DNA from: Mytilus edulis
Lineage: Eukaryota
Direction: 5' to 3'
Assembly: GCF_963676685.1 (NCBI RefSeq)
Contig: NC_092357.1
Location: forward strand, 51,956,001 to 52,020,000
DNA: 64,000 bases
Both the position numbers and the translations under genes were made by a program. Shown here piece after piece: positions 24,477-55,255 of this stretch (its first letter is position 1; each line of letters starts with the position of its first letter). The notes below the pieces were generated by a model. It worked only from the letters and a program-made list of their open reading frames with translations. It was not told the DNA's origin and did not search any database.

Positions 24477-25045
24477 ATTTTTATACGCCCGTCAATTCTG
24501 ACGGGACGTATTATGGAATACATATATCCACCGTCAGTCTGTCCGGCGTCCGTCTGTCCAGCGTAAACATGTCGCACCGTAACTTGAGAACAACTTATCC
24601 AAATGTTATGAGTTGTTTCTTATGATGGTCAAACGATCTGTATACTTTTTGGTGAAAATGAGATAAAATGTTTTGAGTTAATACTTGATTTTGTAACTAA
24701 AACTTGGGTGTGACGGGTTTTTTCACATGTCGCGCCGTATCTTTAAAAAAGATTTATGATTATTGCTTAAAAGTTTACACACTTCTTAGTTATATTAATC
24801 TAAAGATCTATATACTTTTTGGTGATGATTTTTATTTTATTTTTGAGTTCTTGAATTTTATTGAATTTTTTGGTAAAAAAACATATAAAACATGTTGTGA
24901 GCAATTTTTTTCTGTCTCTTATATAAACTTCCTATTGAGCAGGAATAAGGAATGAGTAAGAATATACTTAGCATGACTTCCTGTACAATCCCCATGTTAT
25001 TCAAGACGACGGCCGTATTATCCGCTAGTGGCGCAGCTGTTTATT
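24477..25045 (+). mobile_element. HINE/DINE-like element
   Basis: TTTTTATACGCCCGTC...GACGGGACGTATTAT inverted repeat, (CGTC/TGTC) microsatellite, two degenerate core units, 3' GACGGCCGTATTAT plus small hairpin. Confidence 0.65.
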
Positions 25046-26179
25046 CAAACATCAAAGTTCCTTCCCTAAAAGTAGGCAATTGTTTACACTTGAATACCAG
25101 TCTCCTCAACAAATCTGGTGGTCTTCTGTAGGGCATCCACTGGTATATATAGCTTCTCTTAGAGTTGTGTTTCTGAGGGCCATATCTTATCTCTCAATTC
25201 CTGGTGGATCTTGCTTGACTGTAAGAGGTGTGCCGTATCCTGCTCTACTTCTCCACAAGGACACATTGGAGATGGACAACTTTCATGACTTTGTGTAAAT
25301 GTTGGTTGAGTCTGTTGTGTCCTGTCTCCAGTCTCAAGATGTTGGTTTGTTCAGATCTTGCTAGCTGATGGTAACTGTCTTGTTGCTGTGGAGTGTTGAA
25401 CAGAGATTTGATGATAGTCTTCATCTCTGTGTAGCAGACTGGGTTTTCTCCCTGTTGTTGTTCAGTACCATACTTTGCTAATTTATCGGCTAGTTCATTA
25501 CCCCAAACTCCACAATGTGAAGGGATCTACTGATGTACTGTTGTCAGACTTTTGATGTTGTTTAAAGCTTGTTGGAGTTGAGGTAGCTTGTCGTTCTTCA
25601 AAGCTTGTAGCAGAGAGGGCATCAGTCAGGAATACTACTTGAGTTGTGTTATCGATTTTGTTTTTGATGGAGTGTGCAGCATGAGTAAGGGCTTCTTCTT
25701 CAGCTTTGTAGTTTGCACAATGTAGGCCTGTTGGAATTGCCTCTGATTGTTGATCTCCATTAGGGTACTTAATGTATATGCTAGCCTCTCCTTTTGATGT
25801 GGCATTTGTGGCTGACCCATCTGTATATACTCTTACCCAGGTTTCTGAAGGGTAATCTTCTTCAAGCATACTTTGTCAGTGTTTTCTGAACATTGCTAGT
25901 CTGTTCATCTTTGGTGTTAATGAGCGGAACTGAGGTCTGAATGGTGACATTTCCAAGTTAATCTTCACATGTGTTGTTATTTATTGTGAAAGCTATGGGT
26001 TCGATATATTTAGGTAGAGTTTCCTGGTGTTTTCTTTGTAATGCTCTTGTCTCTAATGTAAAGCTGGATCTTTTGAGTCTGCCTAGGTAGAGTTGTTTCA
26101 GTTTGGTATTCATTGAGTGGTCTTGTGAACACTGATATTTGGTGGCCTGTATCATGGCTTTGCATTCCTTTCTCTTCTT

Positions 26180-26425
26180 TAAAAAGAGGGACGAAATATA
26201 CCAGATGGACAGTCAAACTCATATATTGAAAATCAACTGACAACGCAATGGCTAAAAATAAAAAGACAAACAGACAAATAACAGTACAGAAAACACAACA
26301 TAAACCCCACCAAATACTGGGGGTGATCTCATGTGCTCCAGAAGGGTAAACAGATCCTGCTCCACATGTGGCACCCGTCGTGTTGCTTATGTTATTACAA
26401 ATCCGGTAAATAGTCTAATTCGGTA
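26180..26425. repeat. Interspersed repeat fragment inserted in the RNase H LINE
   Basis: Reverse-complement similarity to ~63895-64000 (gacaacgcaatggctaaaaat...gacaaacagacaaa). Confidence 0.6.
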
Positions 26426-27221
26426 AGGTGGTATGTTTGTTATATCCTCCATACTTTTTAATTGGTGTTGATTTCATAGCACCTGTGCCTGATTCTGAAC
26501 TTTGTTTAAAGTCTGATGATGAGACTTGGCTGCAGTCACTCATCCATGAGCTAGATCCGTATTCAAGATGTGGTCTACATTTCCTTGGTAGACAGATTTC
26601 AAGATTTTTCCATTTGCACCCCATGTTGTTCCTGCAAGTTTCCTCATGATGTTCAATTTTCTCCTAGCCTTAGCGTCAGCTGATGTTATATGTTGCTTAC
26701 ACGGCATTCTTTTGTCAAAAGTTACCCAAAGGTATGTTTGTTGGTGTTCCATCTTAAGTGGAGTATCATCCAAAATCAGCTTGACATATTCGGTTTTGGG
26801 AGAGAGTGCGAAGAGTGTTCCGGTTGTTTTTTCTCTGTTAATGGTAACACACCACTGCTTAGCCCATGTGAATATCATATCTAAAGCTTTGTATTCTGTA
26901 TTTAGCTGTAGATGCATACTCTTCTGAGCACCAGAGAACAAGATAGAGTGCTGATTGTACCCCCTTTGGTAGCTCTGGTACTAGGTGGTTCATAAAGAGT
27001 ATGAATAGAGTTGGAGTTGGTGGTAAGACTTCTCCTTGTGAGACCCCTTGTTTTAAGAGCACTTTCTGTCCACAATGTCCATCTACCAGCTCTCTGGCTT
27101 TTCTATTGTACAAGAACGATTTGGTCCATTTGTAAATTATTCCACTTATGTCATATCTCAATTTTATTAAAATAGTGATGAGAACTTAGTTTAATAAGAT
27201 TGGCAATACCTACCTACCTAC

Positions 27222-30217
27222 CTAGTCCTTATTATGCCCGGGGGCACATAGGGCAAGGACTAGTTCTTTCCACTCATCTCTGTTCTGTGCTTTCTTTTCT
27301 ATTACACCCCAGCTGATTCCATGTTCTTTCATTTCAGCTTCAACTGTTCTTCTCCAAGTTGTTTTGGGGCGCCTTTCTTCCTTTTCCCCTCAGGTGTCCA
27401 TCTTAGGGCTACTCTGGTCAAGTAGCTCTGCTGGTCTTCTAAGAACATGGCTAATCCATCTCCATCTTTTCTGCTTCAATAGAGTCTCCATGTTGTTGGA
27501 TCCTGTTGTTTCATGGAGGTCTTTGTTTGTGATTTTACGCGGCCAGAATATCCTTAATATCTTTCTAAGGCAACCGTTGTGAAAACTGGAGAGCTTGTTG
27601 ATGTCTTTTTCTGTCATTCTCCAGCATTCCGCCCCATATAGTAGCACTGCTAGTACACAACTGTTATATAATCTAATTTTGGTGTTCTTACTGATGTTGC
27701 TTGTCTTCCAGATGTGTCTTAGTTTTAAAAATGCAGTTCTTGCTTTTCCTATTTTGGCTCTGATGTCTTTGTCTGCTCCTCCTTCAGATGTTACGATGCT
27801 GCCCAAGTAGGTGAAAGATGAAGTGCAAACTAGGGGTGTCCCATTTAAATCTATTAAAGGAGGCTCTGAGGTGTTAAGAGGCATCACTTCTGATTTCTTG
27901 ATGTTGATATTTAATCCAATCAAACTTGCATTCTTTTGTAACTTAGTGGTTTTGTCTTGCATGTGTGTTTCTAGATGCGACAATAAGGCCAGATCATCTG
28001 CAAAGTCCAGATCTTCTAGGTAGCTAAAAAGAGTCCATCTAATGCCTGTGTTGTTACTGTTACTGATGGTGGAATTCATTACCCAATCGACAACTATTAT
28101 GAATAGAAGGGAAGACATAACACAGCCTTGTCTAACTCCAGATTTTACTAGAAAGCTGATGTCTGATGAAGTTCCCACAGTGCATCTGAATTCTGTATAG
28201 AACATTTCGATAAGTTGTACTATTTTTGCTGGTATTCCATAGCATCGTAAAATCTTCCATAAGCTTTCTCTGTGTATGCTGTCAAAGGCTTTTTCAAAGT
28301 CTATAAAGTTGATTATCAATTGTCTCTGCCATTCTGTGCACTGTTCAAGGATGTTTCGTAGCACGAATATGTGATCACAACAACTCTTTCCTTTTCTAAA
28401 GCCTGCCTGTTCTTTTCTGAGTTTGTTGTCAATTGCTGTTTTAATTCTGTCTATTAGTATTTTGGTGAAAATTTTACTTGGGATTGGTAATAAGGTGATT
28501 CCTCTCCAGTTATTGCAGTTTGTGAGATCACCTTTCTTATCCAGTCTTATGATGTTACCTTCTGACCAGTTTTTAGGTATCTTGATATTTTGCCAGATCT
28601 CTTTGAATGGTGTGTGAAGAATGTTTGCTGTTAAGGCTGGATCTGATTTAAATAGCTCTGCTGATAGCTTATCGTTTCCTGGGGCTTTGTTGTTTTTAAG
28701 ACTCCTTACTGCTCTGATAATCTCCGATCTTGATGGAATTTCTATATTTACTTCAAGGTCGTGCTCTGCTATGGGTATGTTTGCTGTTGTTTCTGGTTCT
28801 GGCCTATTTAATACTTCTTTGAAGTGCTCATTCCATCTATTCTCTTGTTCTCTTTCAGATGTTATTAGATTACCCTGTTTGTCTTTTACTGGCATGTTGG
28901 TGTTTCTTTTTTTACCACAAAGTTTCTTTGTAATTTGGTAAAGGTCGCCCATTCTTTGCTCAGACGCAGCTTTTTCAGCCTCCAGAGCCAATCCCTCGAT
29001 GAAATCTTTTTTATCTTTTCTGGTGGCTTTCTTAACGTCCTTGTGACAGTTGGAGTATTGACCCATTAGTCTATCTTTTAGTCTATCAGAGCGAGTGTTG
29101 CAGATCTTTTTCTTTAGCTCTTTCCTGTTGTCAATCAGTGTCCATGTCTCTTGTTTGATCCATTCTTTGTGCTTTTGGCGTTTGAAACCCAATATTTTTT
29201 CACTGGTCTTTTTAAACAGATCTTCCACTTCTTGCCATTGTTCATCTACTGTTTCACTGTCTTCAGTGTTGTTACTTTTGAGTTGTTCTAAGAGTTGAAA
29301 GCGGTTCTTCAGTTCTAATTTGAAGTCATGGTTGGTTTTCATGTGTCTGAGTTTCCCTGTGTCGAATCTCTGTACTCTGCAAGGTTCTGATGCTCTCATA
29401 AGTTTAAGTTTGATGTTTGCTGTGACAAGATGATGGTCACTTCCAACATCAGCGCCTCGCCTTATTCTCACATCTTGTAAGGATCTTCTCCATTTGCCAT
29501 TAATTGCTATGTGGTCGATCTGGTTTTTATCTCTGCCTCCAGGTGATACCCAAGTCAGCTTATGGACATCCTTGTGTGGGAACAATGTTCCACTTATTAC
29601 AAGATTGTTCAGTCCACAAAAGTCTACTAGATGTTCTCCATTTTCGTTCATGATCCCACAGCCATGTTTCCCCATTATTCTCTCAAAACCACTGTTATCT
29701 TGCCCCACTTTAGCATTAAAATCTCCCATGATGATTGTTAGGTCTTTTTTCGGGATTTTCTCTATCTCAGCTTGGAGCATTTCATAAAATTCTATCTTAA
29801 TTTCTTTATCAGCTTCATTTGTTGGAGAATAGACTTGGATTATTGATGTCTTTATAGGTTTTGTATTTAGTCTTGCTGTTATTATTCTTTCATTGACTGG
29901 ATTATACTCAATGAGTGATTTAGAGGCTGATTTGTTGAGGATAATGGCAACTCCCCCTTGTGTTTGTCATCTTTTCTACCAGAATATATGATTGTATCTC
30001 CTGTATTTGTCAAGTTTTTGCCAAACCCTGTCCATCTACATTCACTTATACCTAATATGTGCAGCTTGTTTTCCTTCATTTCTCTTAACACTTGGGCTTG
30101 TTTTCCTGTCTCATACATGGTACGGATATTCAAAAAACCCAATTTAAGTTTGGTTCTCGCATTCAGGATACTTTTCGTGTGACTAGCTTCCTGTTGGCTT
30201 TCACTAGTCCCATTCAT
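27222..30217 (-). pseudogene. RTE endonuclease-reverse transcriptase ORF with two frameshifts (~29957 and ~27422)
   Basis: ORFs 29882-30217 and 27390-29780 join via a frameshift before GVAIILN. Motifs GISECRW, GDFNA, GSDH, GVRQGC, DFADD, YLGS; the C-terminus ALRWTPEGKRKKGRPKTTWRR...GHNKD* is in a shifted frame. Confidence 0.9.
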
Positions 30218-30595
30218 TTACGCAGAATTCTGCTGGTATTCTGATGATACGAGACGAGTTAAATTTTTTCTAATCCTTGTTTCCGTAATCAGATGCTATT
30301 TTATGAGTAGGGGAGATTACCCCCTAGCTCAACCTCCAACCTGGTGGACCAGGGTTATTTGTTTATGGTTTTCCTTCCAATAGATAGATGCCTTCCTTGG
30401 CTTACGAGTCTGATCTACCCGTTGATTTTGATGTTAGAGTTCTCTTCTCTTAGGAAAGTTGCCGTAACCAGGCTGCGACCCTCTCCTGGCCGACTATTTT
30501 ACCCATAGTTGGGGCAAGGTTAATGAGTGCTAGGGCATGTCCACATACCAGTGGGCCTACACACTGCATTTCTGGGGCCCTTGCTGCTCCGAGAT

Positions 30596-30826
30596 CCCCA
30601 ACAGATTCGCCTGATTTATTGCAATCAGTTACCGTGTGCTACCGCGGGGAGGCTACTGCTGAAGTCTTGATAATGTAGAGGCTATGTACCGGCAGGAAAG
30701 ACTTACTCACTCGGCTTTCTTTTCGCAAAATAAAATTGCTAGCCAGCGGCATAAGACATCCATAGGACAGTCCCATTCACTAGACGCATAACATTACCCT
30801 GTGATGCACTACCATCACCAACACAC
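30596..30826 (-). ncRNA. HDV-like self-cleaving ribozyme at the RTE 5' end
   Basis: P1 GUGUGUU (30826-30820) with AGCACAC (30640-30634); P2 CAGCAG with CUGUUG; P3 GCC/GGU; L3 UCCCCGC; P1.1 GG; P4 CUGAUU/AAUCAG; J4/2 GCGAA with putative catalytic C at 30609. Confidence 0.85.
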
Positions 30827-32999
30827 AAAGATTGGCAATACCTAAGCATTTCTACAAGGAGTCCATCTTTCCATACCTTATCAAATGCTCTTTGTAGATC
30901 TACACAGACAGCCAACGTTACTATCTTGGATTGGAAGGCATCTTCTACTTCCTGTGATAGATGTGTAGTCTGATCTTCTGTGCTTTTGTATTGTCTAAAA
31001 CCAGCTTGTTCATGTCAAATGATCTTCTCTGTCTGACTCTAAGTTCATGTGCATGCGCTTGTTTATTATGCGCTCCAACAATTAACAACAGCTGCTTGTT
31101 AGGTGTATAGGACAATAACCTGAGGATTGATTTATTCTTTCCTTTCTTTTGTATTGACATTATTATTGCTTCCTTCCAGCATAATGTGGGACTTGACCTG
31201 GTCTCTAGCTAAAATTGAATATGTCCAGCAAAGTGTTTAGTGACGAGTTCCCTAGATGTTGAAGCATCTCATTTGCGATGTTATCTGGACCTGGAGACTT
31301 TTTCTTCTTTAGCTTTCTTATACTAGTAGATTGTTTCATCTAAGACATTGTGTGATGTCAGTCTGCATGATTTCATGTGCTGGTATTTTCTGTCTTTCTC
31401 TAATACCTGTTCATTACTTCTTTTTTTTACGTAAAGTTGGATTGTTGGTATTGCTTTCTTCTTCATAACCTTTTGCAAATGCATTTGCAGCAGCTTTTCC
31501 TGTAGTTGTTTTTCCTTCAAAATCCAGAGTTATCTTTTGGCCTTAACTTCCCTCATAATTTAGAGCTTTTGTCAAGTTTTTTCGTTTTTGTTTGATGTTA
31601 TTCTTCTTGCTGGGGTTTGATTCAGACTCTTATCTTGCTCTTGTGATTGCATCAAGTGTTTCCTGATGATTTCATTGGATCAGTATGGCTTGTAGTCCTT
31701 TCTCACACCCCTTGGTATACTTTCTTTTGCTTGCGTTGAATACCGTATCTTGACAACATTGTTGATGTTCTTTCCTTCAGTAACTATGTCCTTTTTAAGT
31801 TCATTTGCTATTGTTTCAATTTTGCCCCAGTTTGCCTTCTTGTAACTCCATCTTGGTAATTGAGCATTAATAGGTGTCTTTGTTCCTCTGTACAGAAAGC
31901 TAGGTATAGTGTTGTTATTGTGTGCCAGCGGCAAATTGAAGGTTTGTGTATCAGTTGGGTCATTGACAAGAATAAGATGGTGTTCATCTTGCCAATCTTC
32001 TTTTTATCATTTGTGTTGTATCCCCAGCTATGAGATTGGCTGTTAAAATCTACCATGAGAAAGTTAATGTCTGATACCTGTATGGTATCTAGGGAGAGTT
32101 TCTTATCATTTAGACAGTAGAAGTTGACAATGTTATAAGAGCTTTGCCCAATGATGGTTTTTCAAGATTTTCTCGGTGCTTTCATCATATACTAGTATGT
32201 TGTAATCTCCCTGGCATTTATGTTGTTTCTGAACACCTCCTTTCTTTCTTTTCTGTCACTCCTGAAAACTTGGTATCCTTTGACTTTAAAAAAAATTCCT
32301 TCTTGCAAGTGTGTTTCCTGAACACAGGAGATGTTATCATTGTTTTCATGTAGAAAATGATGCAATTCATCTCTTTTGTTAGATACCCCTTCTGCATTCT
32401 AGTGCATGATGTTAATGACTGGTTGTTCTTTCAGCTTTGGCTTGGTGTTTTTTTCGGCCAGTAGCTCTCCTTGTTCGACTCCCGACTCCACAAGACGAAA
32501 CAAAGGTACCCCAGTAGAATTTGATGAACTCTTTGGTGGGTCCTCACAGGGCGAGCACCACTCCTCATAGGGCGAGCTCCACATCGATTGGTTGTGATTC
32601 AAGTGTCATAACGGATGTTTGTGCGTGGTGTTGTGGTCTGTCAAGAGTGCGCTGTATAGCCCAACACTGCCGTCTTCAGCACTGTAGGTTTTCTGTAGGG
32701 GTTACCTTCAACTTCGGAACAAATGTTCTGATCCTGGAAATTCAGATTTTCCTCAAGGTTGTCTTCTGAAGCCTTTCCCATCTGCCCAAGGATATCTGAT
32801 TTTGAGGCGCCAGTGGCTTGCCTTCGTCCCTTCTCCAGTCAGATGAAACAGTTCCACCAGGTTTACAAATAATAAACCACTCGTGAAGGTTGGAGCTTAT
32901 CAGAGACTGTATGAGACGCATGCCAAAAGCAGTAATTTCATTGAATTGGGAGCCTATTTCCCAATTCCACCCCTTTGCTTAACAACTTTTTGGAAGCAG

Positions 33000-33548
33000 G
33001 TCAAGGTCAAATTCTATCAGCCTTTAAATAAATTTTCAGATGAATCAAATAACCCATTATTGGGTAGCTGACATTAAAATTACCAATTTATAATGAAAGT
33101 TTGCAGTTTTGGGTTATTATCTTGAATATTATAATAGATAAAGATAAACTGTAAAGAACAAAAATGTTCAGCAAAGGAAGATCTACAAATAAGTTCATAT
33201 GAACAAAATTGTCTATTTACCCCTGAGGAGTTATTGCCCTTGAGAACAATTTTACACAATTTGTTGATCATGTTTGCTAACTCTTAAAAATCTTGCTCTC
33301 TGAAACCACTGAACCAATTCCAACCAAACCAAAGCTGAATGATCCTTAGAATATCTAGAACAAAGTTTGTGTTTTATTTTCTGTTTAGTCAAAAAACTTG
33401 GCTGGCATGGGTAAAAATAGAAGATTAAGGTAAAATGCAGTTTTTGGCTTATATCTCAAAAACCAAATCATTTAGAGAAAATCTGACATGCTGTGAAGTT
33501 TTTCATTAGGTTAAGTTCTATCAGCACTGAAATATTAAGATGAATCCA
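33000..33548 (+). mobile_element. Degenerate HINE-like core fragment
   Basis: Reverse-complement similarity to the ~500-bp core in 15680-17130. Confidence 0.6.
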
Positions 33549-35683
33549 ATGCTTTTTAAGAAAATATGACGGATGCAAAGAGTGTTTAAATAGCATTTTA
33601 AGCTATAACGGTTTACTTTTACAAAATGTGACTTGGATAAAGAATTGTCTTATTGACACTCATACCACATCTTCTTATATCTATATACCACACATCTTCT
33701 TTTATTCATAATCAGCTGACCACATAAAATGTGTAGTTCATTAAAAGAAGTATATTTTTTCATAAATTTTATTCATAATTATTTGATGAAGTATTTTACA
33801 TCCATTAAAATCTGTAGTAGCATTTTGTATAAACAGATAAAACAAAGATTGCATGCTAAGCACTAAAACAACAAGATTTAAACATAAAAATTTGTGAAAA
33901 TGCAATATTACAATAACGATGTAAAGTTTGTTAGGTGGGTAAAAAGAAATTTGGCATAATACATTGTAAATATAAAAAGTATGATAAAGCTAAAAATTTG
34001 TCATATTTTAAGTGTTAAGTTTTCTGTACATAAGACTTTATCAATAATTATAAGATCATGATCAAACTTACTCGACAGACTACCAACTAACTTTATTGAA
34101 GACAAAATGAGATATGTAACGGAACAACAATAATATGGTTTGAACAATAAAACTTCTGTCATGCACTTGATCTTTCTTCACCAGAAAGAATATAAAAAAG
34201 ATGATGCCTCTATTACAATGCATATTAACCAATTTTAATCATTTTTTGCATTCAAAAATTTTGTTGGCATTGGTTTCCTTTCTCTAGCATAAACTGGTTG
34301 GTGTAGGATATATAATCCAATAAACTGGAAAACAAACATTTAGCAGAGGTCTAGTGAAGCCATCTGACCATAAAATATCATGGAACTAAACATACAAACA
34401 AAAATAAGGTCATGTTGCTAATGTTGGACAGAAGTATACCCTACACAGCAAGTCTAAGGAGAGGCTTTCTTTCATACATTATAGAACTCATTACATCAAC
34501 TTGTATGCATCAACTTGAAAACAAAATCAACTTAAGGAAGACCTGTTTGGAAATCAAATTAGCAAGAATTGGACTGGCATCCTTTATAACCATGTGTATT
34601 GGACTGGCATCCTTTATAACCAGGTGTACTTCTCTCATTATCTTTTTTCATGCCAAAAATAAATGTTAAAACATTGAAGGTATCAATGAATAAAAACATG
34701 ATATCACTATTAATTTATCAATACAATAAAAACATGATATCACTATTAATTTATCAATACAATAAATTACTATTTATTACAATACAATGTCTAAAGACAT
34801 TTCAGTAAAACATTGTTTTGAGTCAAATAAATACTCTTGTTTGTTGTATGAAAACTGACTCAATATAAAAGCACAAAGCTGGAATCCTAAAATTGCTTGT
34901 TTGGGTTAATAAGTTTTAGAAAGTGGCTTCTCTGGTCGATCTAATAGACATTCCTAAGTTGTCTGCGTTCCAATAAAACACAAAAATAAAATTCTTCTAT
35001 TAAAAGAATATCTTTGTTACTGATGGCTCAACAACTTAATGAAGTGTGTGTGATTCTATTTTACTTTTTTTTTATGGCTAATGAATCATTATACTCAGAA
35101 ACTGATACATCTTCACATAGTATGTCTCTTTGATTGAGTAAAAAATAACATGAAATAAATTTCAATTAAATATTCATATTTTGCACATAGCAAATTTTGT
35201 TGACATTAATTCTTTCTACCCTTTTAACAGAGAATTCTCTTTTTTCAGTATAATACCAGGCTACCATTATAGTTTGGAGATGAGATGAAGGGAGAAACTC
35301 ATTATTTACAAATGTACATTATATGTAGGAAGACTAGAACTTTGAACATAGAAAAAGATGGCACCATTGAAGAGAAAATGCTCATATTATATTTGTTAAG
35401 GGATGCTTATCTATGAGTCAATGGACATAAATATTTTAACAGAGTAAGACAGGAGTCAAGATTTAAATTTAAACAAAAGGTAAAAAAAAAGAAAAAAAGT
35501 TTTAAAACTAAATTTGAAATGTTTATATATTTTTTGTTATATAGAGGATGCATCACAATTGTTATGACTTGACCTACTGTATAAAGATTAAAGTGAAACA
35601 TGAAAAGACAATATCTAAGCATACTTCACTTTGCTTTGTTGAATGTGAAAAAGTGTTGTCAACAATGGACAAACAATTGTTTC

Positions 35684-35828
35684 CAGTGGCGGATCCAGAA
35701 AAAGTGGGGGCGAACTGACTACCTAAGAGGGGGCCCACTCCAGTCACGCTTCAGTGATTCTCTATATAAGCAACCCAATTTTTTCCCAAAAAAGGGGGGC
35801 TTGCCCCCCCCCCCTAAATCCGCCTCTG
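35684..35828 (+). mobile_element. MITE CAGTGGCGGATCC...ATCCGCCTCTG with 5-bp TSD
   Basis: TSD GTTTC at 35679-35683 and 35829-35833. Confidence 0.85.
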
Positions 35829-37663
35829 GTTTCACGATACATTTATGTCCACTGACTTACAATATATAGTTGTTAGTATTACATTTATTGTATCAACTTG
35901 GTTGATTAAGTCTGAGATCGTACAAAATAAATAAGACAGATACAACAACATGAATTAATGAAAAGAACTTCAGGCAAATTATCAAATATAGTTAAAATCA
36001 AACCAAATTATTAAGTTGAAACTTATGTTCAGATGAATTCAAGCAGACTTGCAGAGTCAAAAATAAGAAGAACCTTTTCAATCTAGCTGCTTGTTAATGT
36101 TCTTTTTTTTATATTCCTGAGTGAAAAAGATAGGATTCTCAGGTCTCACTAAAGTCCAAGAGTTAACTGGTGTTTTGGCACAAGTTATCTGAAGAATCTT
36201 AAGTACTTGTAAAATCAGCTGAACTTATGTAATGGTAAAATACTTAGAATTTCATTAAAGAAACATATAAAATAAACCAAAGCTTAATGCACTTTGTATA
36301 AACTTGAAATCAAATAAAAATATGTCTCAATATCAGCAAAATTTATTGTTTTTCTGGTAAATCCAATAGGTATTCTCAGACCTTGATAATGACATTATTT
36401 ATACAAACTATTATCATGTTAATGGTATGAAATATTCAAGTAAATATGAGGTCAATTGAAACATCTTACTTATCCAAATTGACGGAAAACAAAATTTATC
36501 AATAGATATAAAAGTTTCATTTTCAGCTTTTTTCCCGTTATTAGAAAGTGAAAGGAAGATATCCTTAAACTGGGATACAAATTAAAGGTGCACATCAAAA
36601 CTGTTGATAAACTACTTTTGATAACTTTTGTTTTATGGAGAATTACACCACTAAAAAATCTAATTCCAGCTTTGGTTTTGTGCAATTCATCATTGAATTG
36701 ATAAGGTTTGATCAACTATAATTTAATGGCATATTCAAACAGAATAACTACCACAATAAGCACATTAGTTTGGCTATAGTTTCCTGATGTATAAAATGAT
36801 TTGTCACAATGAAGAAATAATTGTTACTACATGAAACATTGGCATTTAAAAATACACAAAACATATAAGCCATTTACTATCATTATATTGCATAGCACAG
36901 ATACATATAACATACATATACATACTTATCATTGGATTTCTAAAATGTTAAATGAACACTTGTCATTGAATAGTACTTTACTGGTATAACTCTCTTAAGA
37001 AATCACATTAAGTCTCTGTTGTGTCTGGTCAGCTTTGAAACGGAATTTCATAAGGAAAGTCTAAGCAAAGTTAAATTTGTAAATTTTGTTGATGGTTTAC
37101 TAGTAAATCATCTGTCTTTTGACTTTATTAATTAGAAGTAGTCCAGGAACACAACTCTTTAGCATCATTATTATCATTTCAGTTTGAGCTTAATGGAGTT
37201 AACCCTAACACATTGTTTTTAAAACTTGTATTTGTCAAATTAAGATAGAGTTAAAGTATTTGTAGAAATGATGTAGGGAATACAACACTGAGACATTCTC
37301 ATAAATATGTGATGGATTTCTTAACAATAAACAAAAATAATCTCTAAGAGGCACATTGGTCTTATAAACACTTCCAAATATAACAATGTACTGTTCACAC
37401 CAGAAGTATAACCTCTGATTTAAAATGCAAAATGAAACTTGATTTAGTCTAAAAATAGTAACAACTCCAATAACTATGTTTTATACTTCATGAGGTTATA
37501 ATGTTTCTTACATAACAGATAGAATAAATAACTGAAATATCAACAATTAATATTTGGTAAACTCAACAATACTTCAGTAGTAAAACAATTAACTGTCAAG
37601 AATCTATATGGCATACTCAAACACTTGCAGAGTAATGTAAACTTAGAGGTATGTTGTGTTTAA

Positions 37664-38262
37664 GGGCATATAATACAGATAGAGGGGAGGTAATGATGTT
37701 TCTGATGTTAAATTGTTATTTTTTGAAATCCAAAATTTAACAGATCAAGAAAAGATGTGTTTTTTGACTGAATTTGATCGATAGCTTGCAAACAAGTACA
37801 TATAGACCCCTCTTTTTAAAAAAGACATTTGACTTGTACCAATTTTAAGGAACAAATCACAGATAATTTCTAAATAGATCAGATAAAAATACAGCAGGAC
37901 ATGCTGGTTTCTTATAAAATAATGAATTTTTTTTAAAGTGAATTATTTCCATAGAATTGTATCACATATTTAGATCATACTTCTATAAAGAACATATTTC
38001 AAATGCTTTCACCTAAAAAAACAAACATGCCTGTTTATCATTTGAAACAAAAAAGTAAGGTGTGATTTTTCAATATTGATAAAATGTTGAAAAAAGTAAC
38101 TTTTGAGTAAATGTCTAAATTTTGACCCCATATATCTCTAAAAGTAGTACTTGAATGTATATTTTCAATTGCATATTTAAATGGACTTAGGACAAAAAAA
38201 ATAGCTTGTATGCAATTTTTCGTCAAAAATTCAGGGTGACATGAAAGCTGTATCATATGCCC
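37664..38262. mobile_element. Kolobok-type non-autonomous DNA transposon
   Basis: TTAA TSDs; TIR GGGCATAT(A/G)ATACAG 14/15 match; purine-purine termini. Confidence 0.8.
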
Positions 38263-39831
38263 TTAACCAATTTTTAATATAACTTTTTACCTACAACCAC
38301 TTTATTTTATTTTTTTAAATCATTACTGGACTTTTTTAGTGGAAATTGAAACATAAAATAAAATTTAACGGTAGCAACCTAAATCTACATTCCTTTTACA
38401 GGTAAGAGGCTTACTAATTACAGGTAGCAAGTTTCTGTAGATTTAAGCATTAGACAGATTCCAGTTGTCATGCACTTTTGACATATTCATAATAGTACTT
38501 TTTAGTCTCCACTATTTCAAGAAAAACTTTGTTCAATTTAACAACTGGTTTCTAACAATTCATGCTCACATAGGGTGATCATATATACATATATTTTTAA
38601 ATTCCATCCTGAAAAATTAAAATTAATTTAAAATTAAGATCAGATATATGTTTTTTTAAATAAGATTAATCTGAACTCTCTCACACGCTTAAAATAATTA
38701 TCACAGTTCATAACATTTACATACAGATCTTAGATAAACAATCGTTTAATGGTCACTTTTGATTCGGTATGTAAGGAAATCGTATTCTATAACCTGAAAA
38801 AATATTTGATATATAAAATGTTTTCGGCGGCAAATTAAAAAATATTGGTGGCATTTTCTTATATTTTATCTGAATTTTGAAATGCGGAAACAAGTTCCCT
38901 TATAAAATTGTCTAAATTTTCTTGTCATTGATATATATGGTGGATTTGCAGTCAAATGTAAATATGATTCCTTCTTTGTTAACACAATAGAGATCTTACC
39001 GTGTACAATTGGACATACCAACATGTATTTGTCACCTTCCACTCTCTGTTTATATCTAATAGTATTGTACTTTCTGAACACAATCAAATTCATCATAAAA
39101 TTGTTACATATATTTGTTCACAATTTATGATAAGATAATTTCAGACAATAATATGCGACACAAAAAATGTATTTTGTATTTAGGTAATATCTTTGTTATC
39201 ATACCGTAGTGCATTTATTTCCTTCATGTTTTATTTATGTTCATTTTTAAAAAGATAACTAAATTATAATATATTACATCAGCTAGAACACATTGTTTAA
39301 CAATTTAAATAGTATAATATTTTCTAACAATAACAACATATATATTATCTAAGCTGCATGCACAGATCTATCACCAGCCTTGTATATAAAGTCACATGGT
39401 GTACACATGTACTGTACTGAGCCTTGTATATAAAGTCACATGGTGTACACGTGTACTGTGGTCCCTGCTCAATGTCGATAGTATCACAACCTGTTCAGTG
39501 AATAATCTCAAACAAATGGTTCTTGTGTATAAAATGACTGTATATATATATCACATATCTTCTTGGCAGTATTAACTGTCCCTGACCACTATTGCCTTGG
39601 CTTAACAAAGCTGTATAACACAACCATAAACATAACTCCTGGTTGGTTAATGTATCCATGGTTATCACAACCAAGTTAGTTATCACTATTTGGCAGTATG
39701 GGCTATAACATGTATAAAGTTATCTCCCTTTGTAATAAACAGTTGGTAGTAAACCAACATGTTAAAACTCCCGAACTTTCTTAAGAGTGATTAACTTTGT
39801 GAAAGGGAGATAACACTGACAACACACATGA

Positions 39832-40064
39832 CTACACTGTTGTTTCAGAGTTATCCTCTACAATCATTAAAGGCTTCAGTTCTGTGCCGTTTACTTTCAT
39901 GTCATTGTAATAATCAGATGAGTTAGATTTCCGTGGCAATTGAGCATTTGTATGTACTGGACTGTCAAAATATTCCGGGTTATGAAATTGTAGCACAGGA
40001 TCAGGCTTCATGTACGTTGTATCATCCTCGTCATCAAACACAGGCTTATTCTCATTGATGTAAT
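39832..40064 (-). CDS. EGFR: EGF receptor terminal coding exon
   Basis: DYINENKPVF...FHNPEYF...DYYND...NSETTV*, with an NPxY motif, YxN motifs and a class I PDZ-type C-terminus; TAG at 39834-39832. Confidence 0.92.
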
Positions 40065-48768: not shown

Positions 48769-48846
48769 CTAGAATATAAAAGAGCATCACCATAAAAAAT
48801 CTGAGTTAAAAAAAATAAATGAAAAGCTAAAGAACATTTTAAAATA

Positions 48847-51800
48847 GTCTGAGACACAACAGTTGGACAGTTGAATGGATAAGATTGTAGATAGACTTAA
48901 CCAACCTTATCTCTGAGACACAACAGTTGGACAGTTGAATGGATAAGATTGTAGATAGACTTAACCAACCTTATCTGTCTGAGACACAACAGTTGGACAG
49001 TTGAATGGATAAGATTGTAGATAGACTTAACCAAACTTATCTCTGAGACACAACAGTTGGACAGTTGAATGGATAAGATTGTAGATAGACTTAACCAACC
49101 TTATCTCTGAGACACAACAGTTGGACAGTTGAATGGATAAGATTGTAGATAGACTTAACCAACCTTATCTCTGAGACACAACAGTTGGACAGTTGAATGG
49201 ATAAGATTGTAGATAGACTTAACCAACCTTATCTCTGAGACACAACAGTTGGACAGTTGAATGGATAAGATTGTAGATAGACTTAACCAACCTTATCTCT
49301 GAGACACAACAGTTGGACAGTTGAATGGATAAGATTGTAGATAGACTTAACCAACCTTATCTGTCTGAGACACAACAGTTGGACAGTTGAATGGATAAGA
49401 TTGTAGATAGACTTAACCAACCTTATCTCTGAGACACAACAGTTGGACAGTTGAATGGATAAGATTGTAGATAGACTTAACCAACCTTATCTCTGAGACA
49501 CAACAGTTGGACAGTTGAATGGATAAGATTGTAGATAGACTTAACCAACCTTATCTGTCTGAGACACAACAGTTGGACAGTTGAATGGATAAGATTGTAG
49601 ATAGACTTAACCAACCTTATCTCTGAGACACAACAGTTGGACAGTTGAATGGATAAGATTGTAGATAGACTTAACCAACCTTATCTCTGAGACACAACAG
49701 TTGGACAGTTGAATGGATAAGATTGTAGATAGACTTAACCAACCTTATCTCTGAGACACAACAGTTGGACAGTTGAATGGATAAGATTGTAGATAGACTT
49801 AACCAACCTTATCTCTGAGACACAACAGTTGGACAGTTGAATGGATAAGATTGTAGATAGACTTAACCAACCTTATCTGTCTGAGACACAACAGTTGGAC
49901 AGTTGAATGGATAAGATTGTAGATAGACTTAACCAACCTTATCTCTGAGACACAACAGTTGGACAGTTGAATGGATAAGATTGTAGATAGACTTAACCAA
50001 CCTTATCTCTGAGACACAACAGTTGGACAGTTGAATGGATAAGATTGTAGATAGACTTAACCAACCTTATCTCTGAGACACAACAGTTGGACAGTTGAAT
50101 GGATAAGATTGTAGATAGACTTAACCAACCTTATCTCTGAGACACAACAGTTGGACAGTTGAATGGATAAGATTGTAGATAGACTTAACCAATCTTATCT
50201 CTGAGACACAACAGTTGGACAGTTGAATGGATAAGATTGTAGATAGACTTAACCAATCTTATCTCTGAGACACAACAGTTGGACAGTTGAATGGATAAGA
50301 TTGTAGATAGACTTAACCAATCTTATCTCTGAGACACAACAGTTGGACAGTTGAATGGATAAGATTGTAGATAGACTTAACCAATCTTATCTCTGAGACA
50401 CAACAGTTGGACAGTTGAATGGATAAGATTGTAGATAGACTTAACCAACCTTATCTCTGAGACACAACAGTTGGACAGTTGAATGGATAAGATTGTAGAT
50501 AGACTTAACCAACCTTATCTCTGAGACACAACAGTTGGACAGTTGAATGGATAAGATTGTAGATAGACTTAACCAACCTTATCTCTGAGACACAACAGTT
50601 GGACAGTTGAATGGATAAGATTGTAGATAGACTTAACCAACCTTATCTCTGAGACACAACAGTTGGACAGTTGAATGGATAAGATTGTAGATAGACTTAA
50701 CCAACCTTATCTCTGAGACACAACAGTTGGACAGTTGAATGGATAAGATTGTAGATAGACTTAACCAACCTTATCTCTGAGACACAACAGTTGGACAGTT
50801 GAATGGATAAGATTGTAGATAGACTTAACCAACCTTATCTCTGAGACACAACAGTTGGACAGTTGAATGGATAAGATTGTAGATAGACTTAACCAACCTT
50901 ATCTCTGAGACACAACAGTTGGACAGTTGAATGGATAAGATTGTAGATAGACTTAACCAACCTTATCCTCTGAGACACAACAGTTGGACAGTTGAATGGA
51001 TAAGATTGTAGATAGACTTAACCAACCTTATCTCTGAGACACAACAGTTGGACAGTTGAATGGATAAGATTGTAGATAGACTTAACCAACCTTATCTCTG
51101 AGACACAACAGTTGGACAGTTGAATGGATAAGATTGTAGATAGACTTAACCAACCTTATCTCTGAGACACAACAGTTGGACAGTTGAATGGATAAGATTG
51201 TAGATAGACTTAACCAACCTTATCCTCTGAGACACAACAGTTGGACAGTTGAATGGATAAGATTGTAGATAGACTTAACCAACCTTATCTCTGAGACACA
51301 ACAGTTGGACAGTTGAATGGATAAGATTGTAAATAGACTTAACCAACCTTATCTCTGAGACACAACAGTTGGACAGTTGAATGGATAAGATTGTAGATAG
51401 ACTTAACCAACCTTATCTGCAGCACAGACAGACTAATGGATAAGATTGTAGATAGACTTAACCAATCTTATCTCTGAGACACAACAGTTGGACAGTTGAA
51501 TGGATAAGATTGTAGATAGACTTAACCAATCTTATCTCTGAGACACAACAGTTGGACAGTTGAATGGATAAGATTGTAGATAGACTTAACCAACCTTATC
51601 TCTGAGACACAACAGTTGGACAGTTGAATGGATAAGATTGTAGATAGACTTAACCAACCTTATCTCTGAGACACAACAGTTGGACAGTTGAATGGATAAG
51701 ATTGTAGATAGACTTAACCAACCTTATCTCTGAGACACAACAGTTGGACAGTTGAATGGATAAGATTGTAGATAGACTTAACCAACCTTATCTCTGAGAC

Positions 51801-54800
51801 ACAACAGTTGGACAGTTGAATGGATAAGATTGTAGATAGACTTAACCAACCTTATCCGCAGCACAGACAGACTAATGGATAAGATTGTAGATAGACTTAA
51901 CCAATCTTATCTCTGAGACACAACAGTTGGACAGTTGAATGGATAAGATTGTAGATAGACTTAACCAATCTTATCTCTGAGACACAACAGTTGGACAGTT
52001 GAATGGATAAGATTGTAGATAGACTTAACCAACCTTATCTCTGAGACACAACAGTTGGACAGTTGAATGGATAAGATTGTAGATAGACTTAACCAACCTT
52101 ATCTCTGAGACACAACAGTTGGACAGTTGAATGGATAAGATTGTAGATAGACTTAACCAACCTTATCTCTGAGACACAACAGTTGGACAGTTGAATGGAT
52201 AAGATTGTAGATAGACTTAACCAACCTTATCTCTGAGACACAACAGTTGGACAGTTGAATGGATAAGATTGTAGATAGACTTAACCAACCTTATCTGCAG
52301 CACAGACAGACTAATGGATAAGATTGTAGATAGACTTAACCAACCTTATCTCTGAGACACAACAGTTGGACAGTTGAATGGATAAGATTGTAGATAGACT
52401 TAACCAACCTTATCTCTGAGACACAACAGTTGGACAGTTGAATGGATAAGATTGTAGATAGACTTAACCAACCTTATCTCTGAGACACAACAGTTGGACA
52501 GTTGAATGGATAAGATTGTAGATAGACTTAACCAACCTTATCTCTGAGACACAACAGTTGGACAGTTGAATGGATAAGATTGTAGATAGACTTAACCAAC
52601 CTTATCTCTGAGACACAACAGTTGGACAGTTGAATGGATAAGATTGTAGATAGACTTAACCAAACTTATCTCTGAGACACAACAGTTGGACAGTTGAATG
52701 GATAAGATTGTAGATAGACTTAACCAAACTTATCTCTGAGACACAACAGTTGGACAGTTGAATGGATAAGATTGTAGATAGACTTAACCAACCTTATCTC
52801 TGAGACACAACAGTTGGACAGTTGAATGGATAAGATTGTAGATAGACTTAACCAACCTTATCTCTGAGACACAACAGTTGGACAGTTGAATGGATAAGAT
52901 TGTAGATAGACTTAACCAACCTTATCTCTGAGACACAACAGTTGGACAGTTGAATGGATAAGATTGTAGATAGACTTAACCAAACTTATCTCTGAGACAC
53001 AACAGTTGGACAGTTGAATGGATAAGATTGTAGATAGACTTAACCAATCTTATCTCTGAGACACAACAGTTGGACAGTTGAATGGATAAGATTGTAGATA
53101 GACTTAACCAACCTTATCTCTGAGACACAACAGTTGGACAGTTGAATGGATAAGATTGTAGATAGACTTAACCAACCTTATCTCTGAGACACAACAGTTG
53201 GACAGTTGAATGGATAAGATTGTAGATAGACTTAACCAATCTTATCTCTGAGACACAACAGTTGGACAGTTGAATGGATAAGATTGTAGATAGACTTAAC
53301 CAACCTTATCTCTGAGACACAACAGTTGGACAGTTGAATGGATAAGATTGTAGATAGACTTAACCAACCTTATCTCTGAGACACAACAGTTGGACAGTTG
53401 AATGGATAAGATTGTAGATAGACTTAACCAACCTTATCTCTGAGACACAACAGTTGGACAGTTGAATGGATAAGATTGTAGATAGACTTAACCAACCTTA
53501 TCTCTGAGACACAACAGTTGGACAGTTGAATGGATAAGATTGTAGATAGACTTAACCAAACTTATCTCTGAGACACAACAGTTGGACAGTTGAATGGATA
53601 AGATTGTAGATAGACTTAACCAACCTTATCTCTGAGACACAACAGTTGGACAGTTGAATGGATAAGATTGTAGATAGACTTAACCAACCTTATCTCTGAG
53701 ACACAACAGTTGGACAGTTGAATGGATAAGATTGTAGATAGACTTAACCAACCTTATCTCTGAGACACAACAGTTGGACAGTTGAATGGATAAGATTGTA
53801 GATAGACTTAACCAACCTTATCTCTGAGACACAACAGTTGGACAGTTGAATGGATAAGATTGTAGATAGACTTAACCAACCTTATCTCTGAGACACAACA
53901 GTTGGACAGTTGAATGGATAAGATTGTAGATAGACTTAACCAACCTTATCTCTGAGACACAACAGTTGGACAGTTGAATGGATAAGATTGTAGATAGACT
54001 TAACCAACCTTATCTCTGAGACACAACAGTTGGACAGTTGAATGGATAAGATTGTAGATAGACTTAACCAACCTTATCTCTGAGACACAACAGTTGGACA
54101 GTTGAATGGATAAGATTGTAGATAGACTTAACCAACCTTATCTCTGAGACACAACAGTTGGACAGTTGAATGGATAAGATTGTAGATAGACTTAACCAAC
54201 CTTATCTCTGAGACACAACAGTTGGACAGTTGAATGGATAAGATTGTAGATAGACTTAACCAACCTTATCTCTGAGACACAACAGTTGGACAGTTGAATG
54301 GATAAGATTGTAGATAGACTTAACCAAACTTATCTCTGAGACACAACAGTTGGACAGTTGAATGGATAAGATTGTAGATAGACTTAACCAACCTTATCTC
54401 TGAGACACAACAGTTGGACAGTTGAATGGATAAGATTGTAGATAGACTTAACCAACCTTATCTCTGAGACACAACAGTTGGACAGTTGAATGGATAAGAT
54501 TGTAGATAGACTTAACCAATCTTATCTCTGAGACACAACAGTTGGACAGTTGAATGGATAAGATTGTAGATAGACTTAACCAACCTTATCTCTGAGACAC
54601 AACAGTTGGACAGTTGAATGGATAAGATTGTAGATAGACTTAACCAACCTTATCTCTGAGACACAACAGTTGGACAGTTGAATGGATAAGATTGTAGATA
54701 GACTTAACCAACCTTATCTCTGAGACACAACAGTTGGACAGTTGAATGGATAAGATTGTAGATAGACTTAACCAACCTTATCTCTGAGACACAACAGTTG

Positions 54801-54911
54801 GACAGTTGAATGGATAAGATTGTAGATAGACTTAACCAACCTTATCTCTGAGACACAACAGTTGGACAGTTGAATGGATAAGATTGTAGATAGACTTAAC
54901 CAAACTTATCC
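48847..54911. repeat. 64-bp satellite array, ~6.1 kb, about 95 copies, in an EGFR kinase intron
   Basis: Unit ctctgagacacaacagttggacagttgaatggataagattgtagatagacttaaccaaccttat; copies are near-identical. Confidence 0.98.
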
Positions 54912-55255
54912 GCAGCACAGACAGACTAATTAACAGGTAAAAACTGACAGTAATTCATATAAATATACCCTTGACTTTCATTATATAAATGCATATGTAA
55001 ACACATTAAAGGACATAGGTAGCCTATCTTTCAATGAAAAATCAAGGCATAAAAATACAAATTACTACCATTCCTTTGTTTATGAAGCCTGTTTAAAGAA
55101 AATAAAATATATCCTTTTCTGCTATTTCTAACATGTTAGATTTTTCATGAAATATTGATAACAAATAAATTTTCTGAAACAATGTTAACTTTAAATAGTG
55201 ATATAACATTAGTTAGCTAGATTTTCATTGAAATGATTATGATAAATTAACATAC

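Follow-up and report, generated by a model that had tools for sequence, protein, structure and literature searches.

An HDV-like fold with a conserved J1/2 domain as the very likely determinant of 5′ ends in an RTE-type LINE family of Mytilus edulis

Results

A 64,000-nucleotide stretch of the Mytilus edulis genome (NC_092357.1, positions 51,956,001 to 52,020,000; hereafter the window) contains a full-length RTE-type LINE copy that is headed, on the minus strand, by an HDV-like double pseudoknot with all of its parts. Comparison with related copies indicates that this fold very likely sets the 5′ end across the element's own family, and that the long J1/2 segment within it, far from being a loose loop, forms several covarying helices whose loops are near-invariant. 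We consider it probable that the first 235 bases form an HDV-type fold that likely frees the element RNA from longer host transcripts, and that J1/2, predicted to be a folded domain, likely keeps P1 and P2 together, with protein or ribosome binding as a probable further role. Ribozyme-headed RTEs are known biology; the conserved inserted J1/2 domain is the new lead. The coordinates of all features are collected in Table 1.

Table 1. Features of the window, in window coordinates
Feature	Position	Strand	Remark
EGFR-like exons	63,752 to 39,835	minus	
TNFR/p75-like exons	from 13,779 down	minus	
RTE-type LINE copy, full length	27213..30827	minus	3,615 bp, TSD-bounded
TSD, 5′ copy	30828..30844		17 bp
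TSD, 3′ copy	27196..27212		17 bp, directly behind short (TAGG)n tail
Extra T between TSD and P1	30827	minus	one base
Predicted cleavage site	between 30827 and 30826	minus	
P1	30826-30820 with 30640-30634	minus	7 of 7 pairs, one G-U
J1/2	30819-30665	minus	155 nt
Hairpin Ja	30801..30818	minus	paired in 97.7% of cells; two-sided change in 1 of 4 counted pairs
Main J1/2 domain	30671..30796	minus	
Closing helix Jb	30796-30791 with 30676-30671	minus	
Closing helix Jc	30790-30787 with 30686-30683	minus	
Hairpin Jd	30778-30749	minus	
Helix Je	30747-30742 with 30693-30688	minus	
Hairpin Jf	30739-30725	minus	followed by GAAAA linker
Helix Jg	30719-30714 with 30702-30696	minus	near-invariant loop 30713-30703
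Possible P2 extension	30667-30665 with part of 30592..30604	minus	3 pairs, by eye from alignment
P2	30664-30656 with 30604-30596	minus	9 pairs
P3	30653-30651 with 30643-30641	minus	
L3	30650-30644	minus	
P1.1	30649-30648 with 30633-30632	minus	3′ side is GG
P4 hairpin	30628-30623 with 30616-30611	minus	
J4/2 CGAA	30606..30609	minus	contains C30609
Remaining 5′ UTR	30218..30591	minus	first ~100 nt conserved in distant elements too
Endonuclease and RT, single ORF	27225..30217	minus	Pfam RVT_1, Exo_endo_phos, DUF6451

The original prediction had placed the parts of a nested double pseudoknot in the right order at this site, with the P1 5′ strand one nucleotide inside the TSD-defined end and a long-range P1 looping out about 155 nt of J1/2. 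All of these parts were found at the predicted minus-strand places: T30827 sits between the TSD and the first base of P1, and P1 pairs completely across the whole of J1/2. HDV-like L3 loops open with U-pyrimidine-C, and the window copy carries this pattern together with a 3-bp P3 and a 1- to 2-bp P1.1. C30609 corresponds to the catalytic C75. The possible extension of P2 was left uncounted in all pairing figures.

We then asked how often such an arrangement arises by chance. A loose HDV descriptor that allowed a J1/2 of up to 300 nt gave 301 full matches in 300 shuffled windows; because this amounts to about one match per shuffled window, the order of the parts alone proves little, and the loose descriptor was rejected as evidence. 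When P2 was set to at least 9 pairs and P4 to at least 6, the site was the sole match in the window, against 4 matches in 300 shuffles. Of the 64,000 minus-strand places, 7 carry a 7-mer that could form P1 with the 3′ strand. A search of the window against Rfam returned nothing at gathering score and no ribozyme family at E values up to 10, with chance-level matches only at high E; the long insert would defeat the curated Rfam HDV-like models. Energy folding of the region was unremarkable relative to shuffles (z = 0.34), as was that of a distant metagenomic relative described below (L078; z = -0.79), and single-sequence energy folding failed to return the covariation model of J1/2.

Upstream flanks of the copies are unrelated to one another. 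Among the 60 loci examined, 25 distinct copies had a TSD right behind the tail, and in 24 of them the element started within -3 to +3 nt of the first base of P1 (exactly in 11; negative offsets are letters common to TSD and P1), as the original prediction had led us to expect. The first 40 loci contributed 18 such copies, 17 within -2 to +3 nt (9 exact) and one carrying 15 extra letters. A further 20 loci were chosen without regard to their ends, through an inner motif lying about 100 nt in, and the 7 of these with a tail-anchored TSD all started within -3 to +2, two of them exactly. In these counts, L068 was entered as offset 0 after its P1 start had been moved by one base, and not counted as TSDs were the repeats of L046 (8 bp, A-rich) and of L130 to L132, L134, L136 and L138 (not behind the tail). 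In the family represented by L120 to L123, P1 is spelled differently but pairs at 7 of 7 positions, and the element boundary still tracks P1. This tracking is the best indirect indication that reverse transcription copied an RNA starting at the cleavage site. Extra letters start with T in 7 of 7 cases (7 of the 25 TSD-bounded copies), which would fit untemplated additions, and the extra T of the window copy was likely an untemplated addition during insertion. No reads started at 30826 in four raw RNA runs, whose coverage was very thin at 58 to 103 reads on 4.5 kb, most of them from other repeats.

Covariation was assessed across copies from the same genome (1.37 Gb, 2,368 contigs). A DNA search gave 41 matches, and 40 of 195 candidates were scored; 39 further loci were fetched, and the heads of 34 of the 40 copies were aligned (alignment A1). 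The copies omitted were L038 and L045 (core deleted), L048 (identical to L047), L057 and L063 (5′-truncated) and L065 (decayed). Over 27 core pairs, 91.5% of cells were paired, against 30 to 44% in slid controls, and two-sided change was seen at 12 of the 27 pairs, where shuffles gave 8.0 (3/500), although related copies share changes and the counts therefore overstate independent events. The covariation of P1 and P2 that the original prediction had proposed as a check was found, with two-sided change in 4 of 7 pairs of P1 and 3 of 9 pairs of P2, and also in 4 of 6 pairs of P4. P2 was 98.7% paired, and all of the aligned heads (34 of 34) have the catalytic C. The weak point is P3, which is 68.6% paired and has a broken middle pair in half of the set (17 of 34); P1.1 is reduced to one pair in 8 of 34. 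We take the fold at the RTE 5′ end to be a real HDV-like fold.

By eye, the broken middle pair of P3 (columns 194 to 206 of alignment A1) is mostly a C-A mismatch fixed in whole subfamilies, some with intact ORFs. L045 and L038 keep J1/2, but their ribozyme core is partly or wholly gone; an internal deletion has shortened L045 to about 510 bp while leaving its two ends in place.

The reading given in the original prediction stood as regards the HDV-like fold, the long-range P1 and the 5′ end at the first base of P1, all upheld by covariation and family ends, but J1/2, taken there as looped out, proved to be a conserved, covarying domain. The seven helices modelled for it comprise 39 pairs, with 91.6% of cells paired. 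Two-sided cells numbered 126, against 50 in shuffles (0/500), and pairs changing on both sides 15 of 39, against 12.6 (25/500), which is the weaker test; the seven-helix model was drawn from the tested sequences themselves, so that the test leans its way. Within the genome, two-sided change was absent from Jc and Je. RNAalifold recovered Ja, Jd, Je, Jf and Jg on its own but missed Jb and Jc. The loops and linkers of J1/2 are 93 to 99% conserved, against 69% for P4.

The genome contains 68 copies of a 24-letter motif of the Jg hairpin and none of its reversed control. Of 30 genomic loci, many belonging to the families from which the model was built, 28 have an HDV core following the motif, and the two loci without a match have visibly decayed cores. 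The inner motif was absent from the viral contigs and prokaryote genomes searched. The window copy carries two private changes in J1/2, near 30777 and 30690. We found no description of the domain in Rfam or in the papers searched, and it may be on record in Ruminski 2011, Webb 2009, their supplements or Repbase.

RNA models were then run on more distant loci, all fetched as heads carrying the exact motif. A 29-letter pattern search gave 10 metagenomic stretches. The J1/2 model (R1) matched all 10 loci (57 to 117 bits), as did the core model, with four cut by the contig end; since Jg and its loop were fixed by the pattern itself, independent support comes only from the other parts. Five stretches represent one element (L078:1819-2150, L070 to L072 and L077), whose frame in L078 encodes 1,054 aa with endonuclease and RT domains. 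The L078 protein is only 31 to 32% identical to that of the window RTE family, and about 220 nt of its head are 75 to 81% identical to the genomic copies. P1 of L078 is spelled differently and pairs at 7 of 7 positions, and the same holds for metagenomic L074. The element has two overlapping P1 registers, and 3 of its 4 distinct flanks end at the first; L077 begins beside the second.

A more distant family in the same genome (L090, L097, L101, L106 and L120 to L123) has proteins 42 to 49% identical. This family keeps the J1/2 motif, but its HDV core carries one more short hairpin, placed between P2 and P3, and its head is without Ja.

Between subfamilies, heads are 77 to 88% alike, against 67 to 70% for coding DNA. 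The L078 protein is the outlier (31 to 34%) with a head 64 to 69% identical to the window family, while for L121 the figures are 42 to 49% for protein and 58 to 63% for the head; head and protein distances thus rank the two oppositely, a hint of head exchange from sequence distances. In head and protein trees built without an outgroup, 4 of 7 inner branches were open, and head exchange is neither shown nor excluded by them.

The element architecture fits the RTE clade by its sequence traits. Members of this clade have one ORF, about 1,000 aa long, that encodes an AP endonuclease and RT (PMC5850137), and the family has this layout of endonuclease and RT, with the window copy itself broken. Other RTE-clade traits found were short tandem repeats at the 3′ end, no poly(A), and TSDs of about 8 to 20 bp. 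No RTE-named protein was among the best 120 of 741 homologues; those that do carry a name come from fish, oyster and snail. Sister copies (L031 and L033 to L035) are 96.7 to 98.4% identical along the whole element, L031 being 98.4% identical to the window copy. Compared with the intact sister L033, the window ORF lacks one base near 29960 and also has a +1/-1 pair near 27425/27371 that leads to an early stop. Six intact copies (L033, L035, L041, L049 and L062 are intact sisters) encode 998 to 1,000 aa from the first in-frame ATG, which lies about 600 nt in, behind 8 to 12 upstream ATGs. In the window copy, the first in-frame ATG is at 30217, with 11 ATGs between the 5′ end and that position. 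The approximately 100 nt beyond P2 (window 30590-30490 and its equivalent in sisters) are conserved down to L078 and L121, and further hairpins look possible there.

The window RTE splits the RT frame of an older, decayed LINE in the same orientation. This older LINE occupies about 25,000-32,500 of the window on the minus strand, and its downstream part resembles, by eye, what we take to be an RNase H domain.

Flanking sequence was considered as a possible influence on P1. RNA of the window copy, folded with 40 nt of its own flank and ending at the P1 3′ strand, was predicted to form P1 with a mean pair probability of 0.87, and a flank hairpin blocking P1 in the window copy was not supported. 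In a simple nested model, adding 40 nt of flank brought the predicted pairing of P1 down to at most 0.21 in 7 of 17 copies (L031, L032, L037, L040, L049, L050 and L053). Under such a model, the insertion site may switch off a copy's ribozyme.

Discussion

RTEs headed by HDV-like ribozymes have already been published (PMC6765202, PMC5786205, PMC7761336), and such ribozymes have been described at the start of RTE, Baggins, R2 and L1Tc elements (Ruminski 2011 and Webb 2009, as cited in PMC6765202 and PMC5786205). The window element resembles these in its nested double pseudoknot at the exact 5′ end, its unrelated upstream flanks, and the release from a co-transcript and cap-independent translation proposed for them, but it is without an Rfam match and its J1/2 is a 155-nt multi-helix domain. 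In drz-Agam-2-1, a structured J1/2 and an extended P2 activate the ribozyme (PMC4908430). By sequence comparison, the window element shares the structured J1/2, the short linkers and the extended P2; in drz-Agam-2-1, however, J1/2 is one hairpin of about 45 nt in the construct described and a large insert follows P1.1 (PMC4908430), whereas here J1/2 has seven predicted helices with conserved loops and P4 is short. In R2 ribozymes the P1 strands are likewise far apart (23 to over 700 nt), and part of J1/2 can be needed for cleavage. R2 J1/2 loops are little alike between species and many R2 elements borrow the P1 5′ strand from 28S rRNA (PMC3774820), whereas in the window family J1/2 is conserved and P1 is wholly internal. 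Perere-3 of Schistosoma mansoni is also of the RTE clade, and its TSD abuts the ribozyme cleavage site, but its ribozyme is of the twister class and the TSD supplies part of a ribozyme helix, unlike in the window element (PMC8501958).

From the parts, the covariation and the 5′ ends at P1, all of which are observed, we infer a mechanism in five steps. The RTE would be transcribed by read-through from host promoters. During transcription the J1/2 helices would form, leaving short linkers to P1 and to the extended P2, and J1/2 would act like the P1.2 "pinch" of drz-Agam-2-1. C30609 would catalyze cleavage 5′ of G30826, giving an uncapped, 5′-OH RNA. The roughly 600-nt leader with its 8 to 12 upstream ATGs favors internal ribosome entry, by which the ORF would be translated; HDV-like heads have been proposed as ribosome-entry sites (PMC6765202), and binding of the element's own protein would be an alternative to ribosome entry. 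Target-primed reverse transcription would reach the cleaved end, often adding one to three untemplated bases, and the outcome would be a TSD-flanked copy starting at P1.

The RTE family offers a clean comparative case of a 5′ end set at P1. In J1/2 the stems covary and the loops are near-invariant across elements that are about 32% identical in protein, which names the exact bases for mutation. The domain may bear on how a LINE RNA that has cleaved itself, has no cap and carries about ten upstream ATGs is translated and recognized by its RT and, if the reading holds, the J1/2 module would be a defined structure for the translation or recognition of uncapped, 5′-OH retrotransposon RNA.

The strongest competitor, which we rate somewhat below even chances, is that J1/2 is a folding aid only, in effect a large P1.2, with no binding role and with loops conserved by descent or by internal tertiary contacts. 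The short linkers and the extended P2 match the drz-Agam-2-1 design (PMC4908430), part of the long J1/2 of the silkmoth R2 ribozyme is needed for cleavage (PMC3774820), and the J1/2 motif was not seen apart from the HDV core or its decayed remains. Yet drz-Agam-2-1 manages with its hairpin of roughly 45 nt (PMC4908430), and since a single hairpin suffices there, the invariant loops suggest a second role; the single-stranded parts of J1/2 are far better conserved than P4, while R2 J1/2 loops have only small identical regions between species (PMC3774820). It is improbable that an internal Pol II promoter sets the 5′ end, with the conserved J1/2 a DNA element and the ribozyme vestigial or secondary. 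Sequence conservation peaks in the unpaired parts, the middle pair of P3 is broken in half of the copies, and internal promoters do occur in some LINEs (PMC8501958), but two-sided changes in P1, P2, P4 and five J1/2 helices need selection on RNA pairing, the 5′ end tracks P1 even where the P1 sequence and J1/2 layout differ, and the catalytic C is invariant. A broader reading than the fold-and-bind one we prefer, in which J1/2 is an undescribed functional RNA module, for example for ribosome entry or RT binding, and ribozyme and module together form a portable head kept or exchanged by distant RTEs, is tentative and in our judgment rather unlikely.

The original prediction had further suggested that the ribozyme could cut EGFR read-through RNA before the p75-like gene. 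The orientation it relied on was correct, both genes and the ribozyme being on the minus strand, but this role was not supported, and it is highly improbable that the window copy was retained to cut such RNA and so shield the p75-like gene. In a stranded RNA run (X22, whose reads are mostly 90 to 95% alike and possibly from another species without the insertion), EGFR 3′-UTR depth is 5 to 10 down to about 34,000 and 0.06 to 0.37 over 31,005-33,005, and AATAAA sites lie near the EGFR RNA end at 34,097, 33,773 and 33,706. The copy is thus about 3.2 kb past the apparent RNA end, a distance that Pol II may still cover, and the ribozyme may lie within the EGFR termination zone; P1 is also predicted to form in the native flank. 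Against shielding, RNA depth upstream of the copy is less than a tenth of that in the EGFR 3′ UTR, the agreement in strand is a coin toss, and the copy is young, frameshifted and one of at least 68 motif-bearing loci. Moreover, HDV-ribozyme cleavage in human cells left the 5′-OH product undegraded and gave no support for termination (PMC6938672). Cleavage would release the element RNA rather than shield the next gene. Nothing points to co-option, since the copy is 98.4% identical to its sister and sits inside an older LINE; it is a young passenger with a frameshifted ORF and no evident role for EGFR. No first exon could be placed for the p75-like gene, so the RTE could conceivably sit within one of its introns.

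No empty-site joint was among the joints listed for two contig runs. By RNA depth, the EGFR 3′ UTR is about 6 kb long (window about 34,000-39,835, minus strand). Inside an EGFR intron, at about 48,800-55,000 of the window, lies a long array of tandem repeats, each about 64 bp in length.
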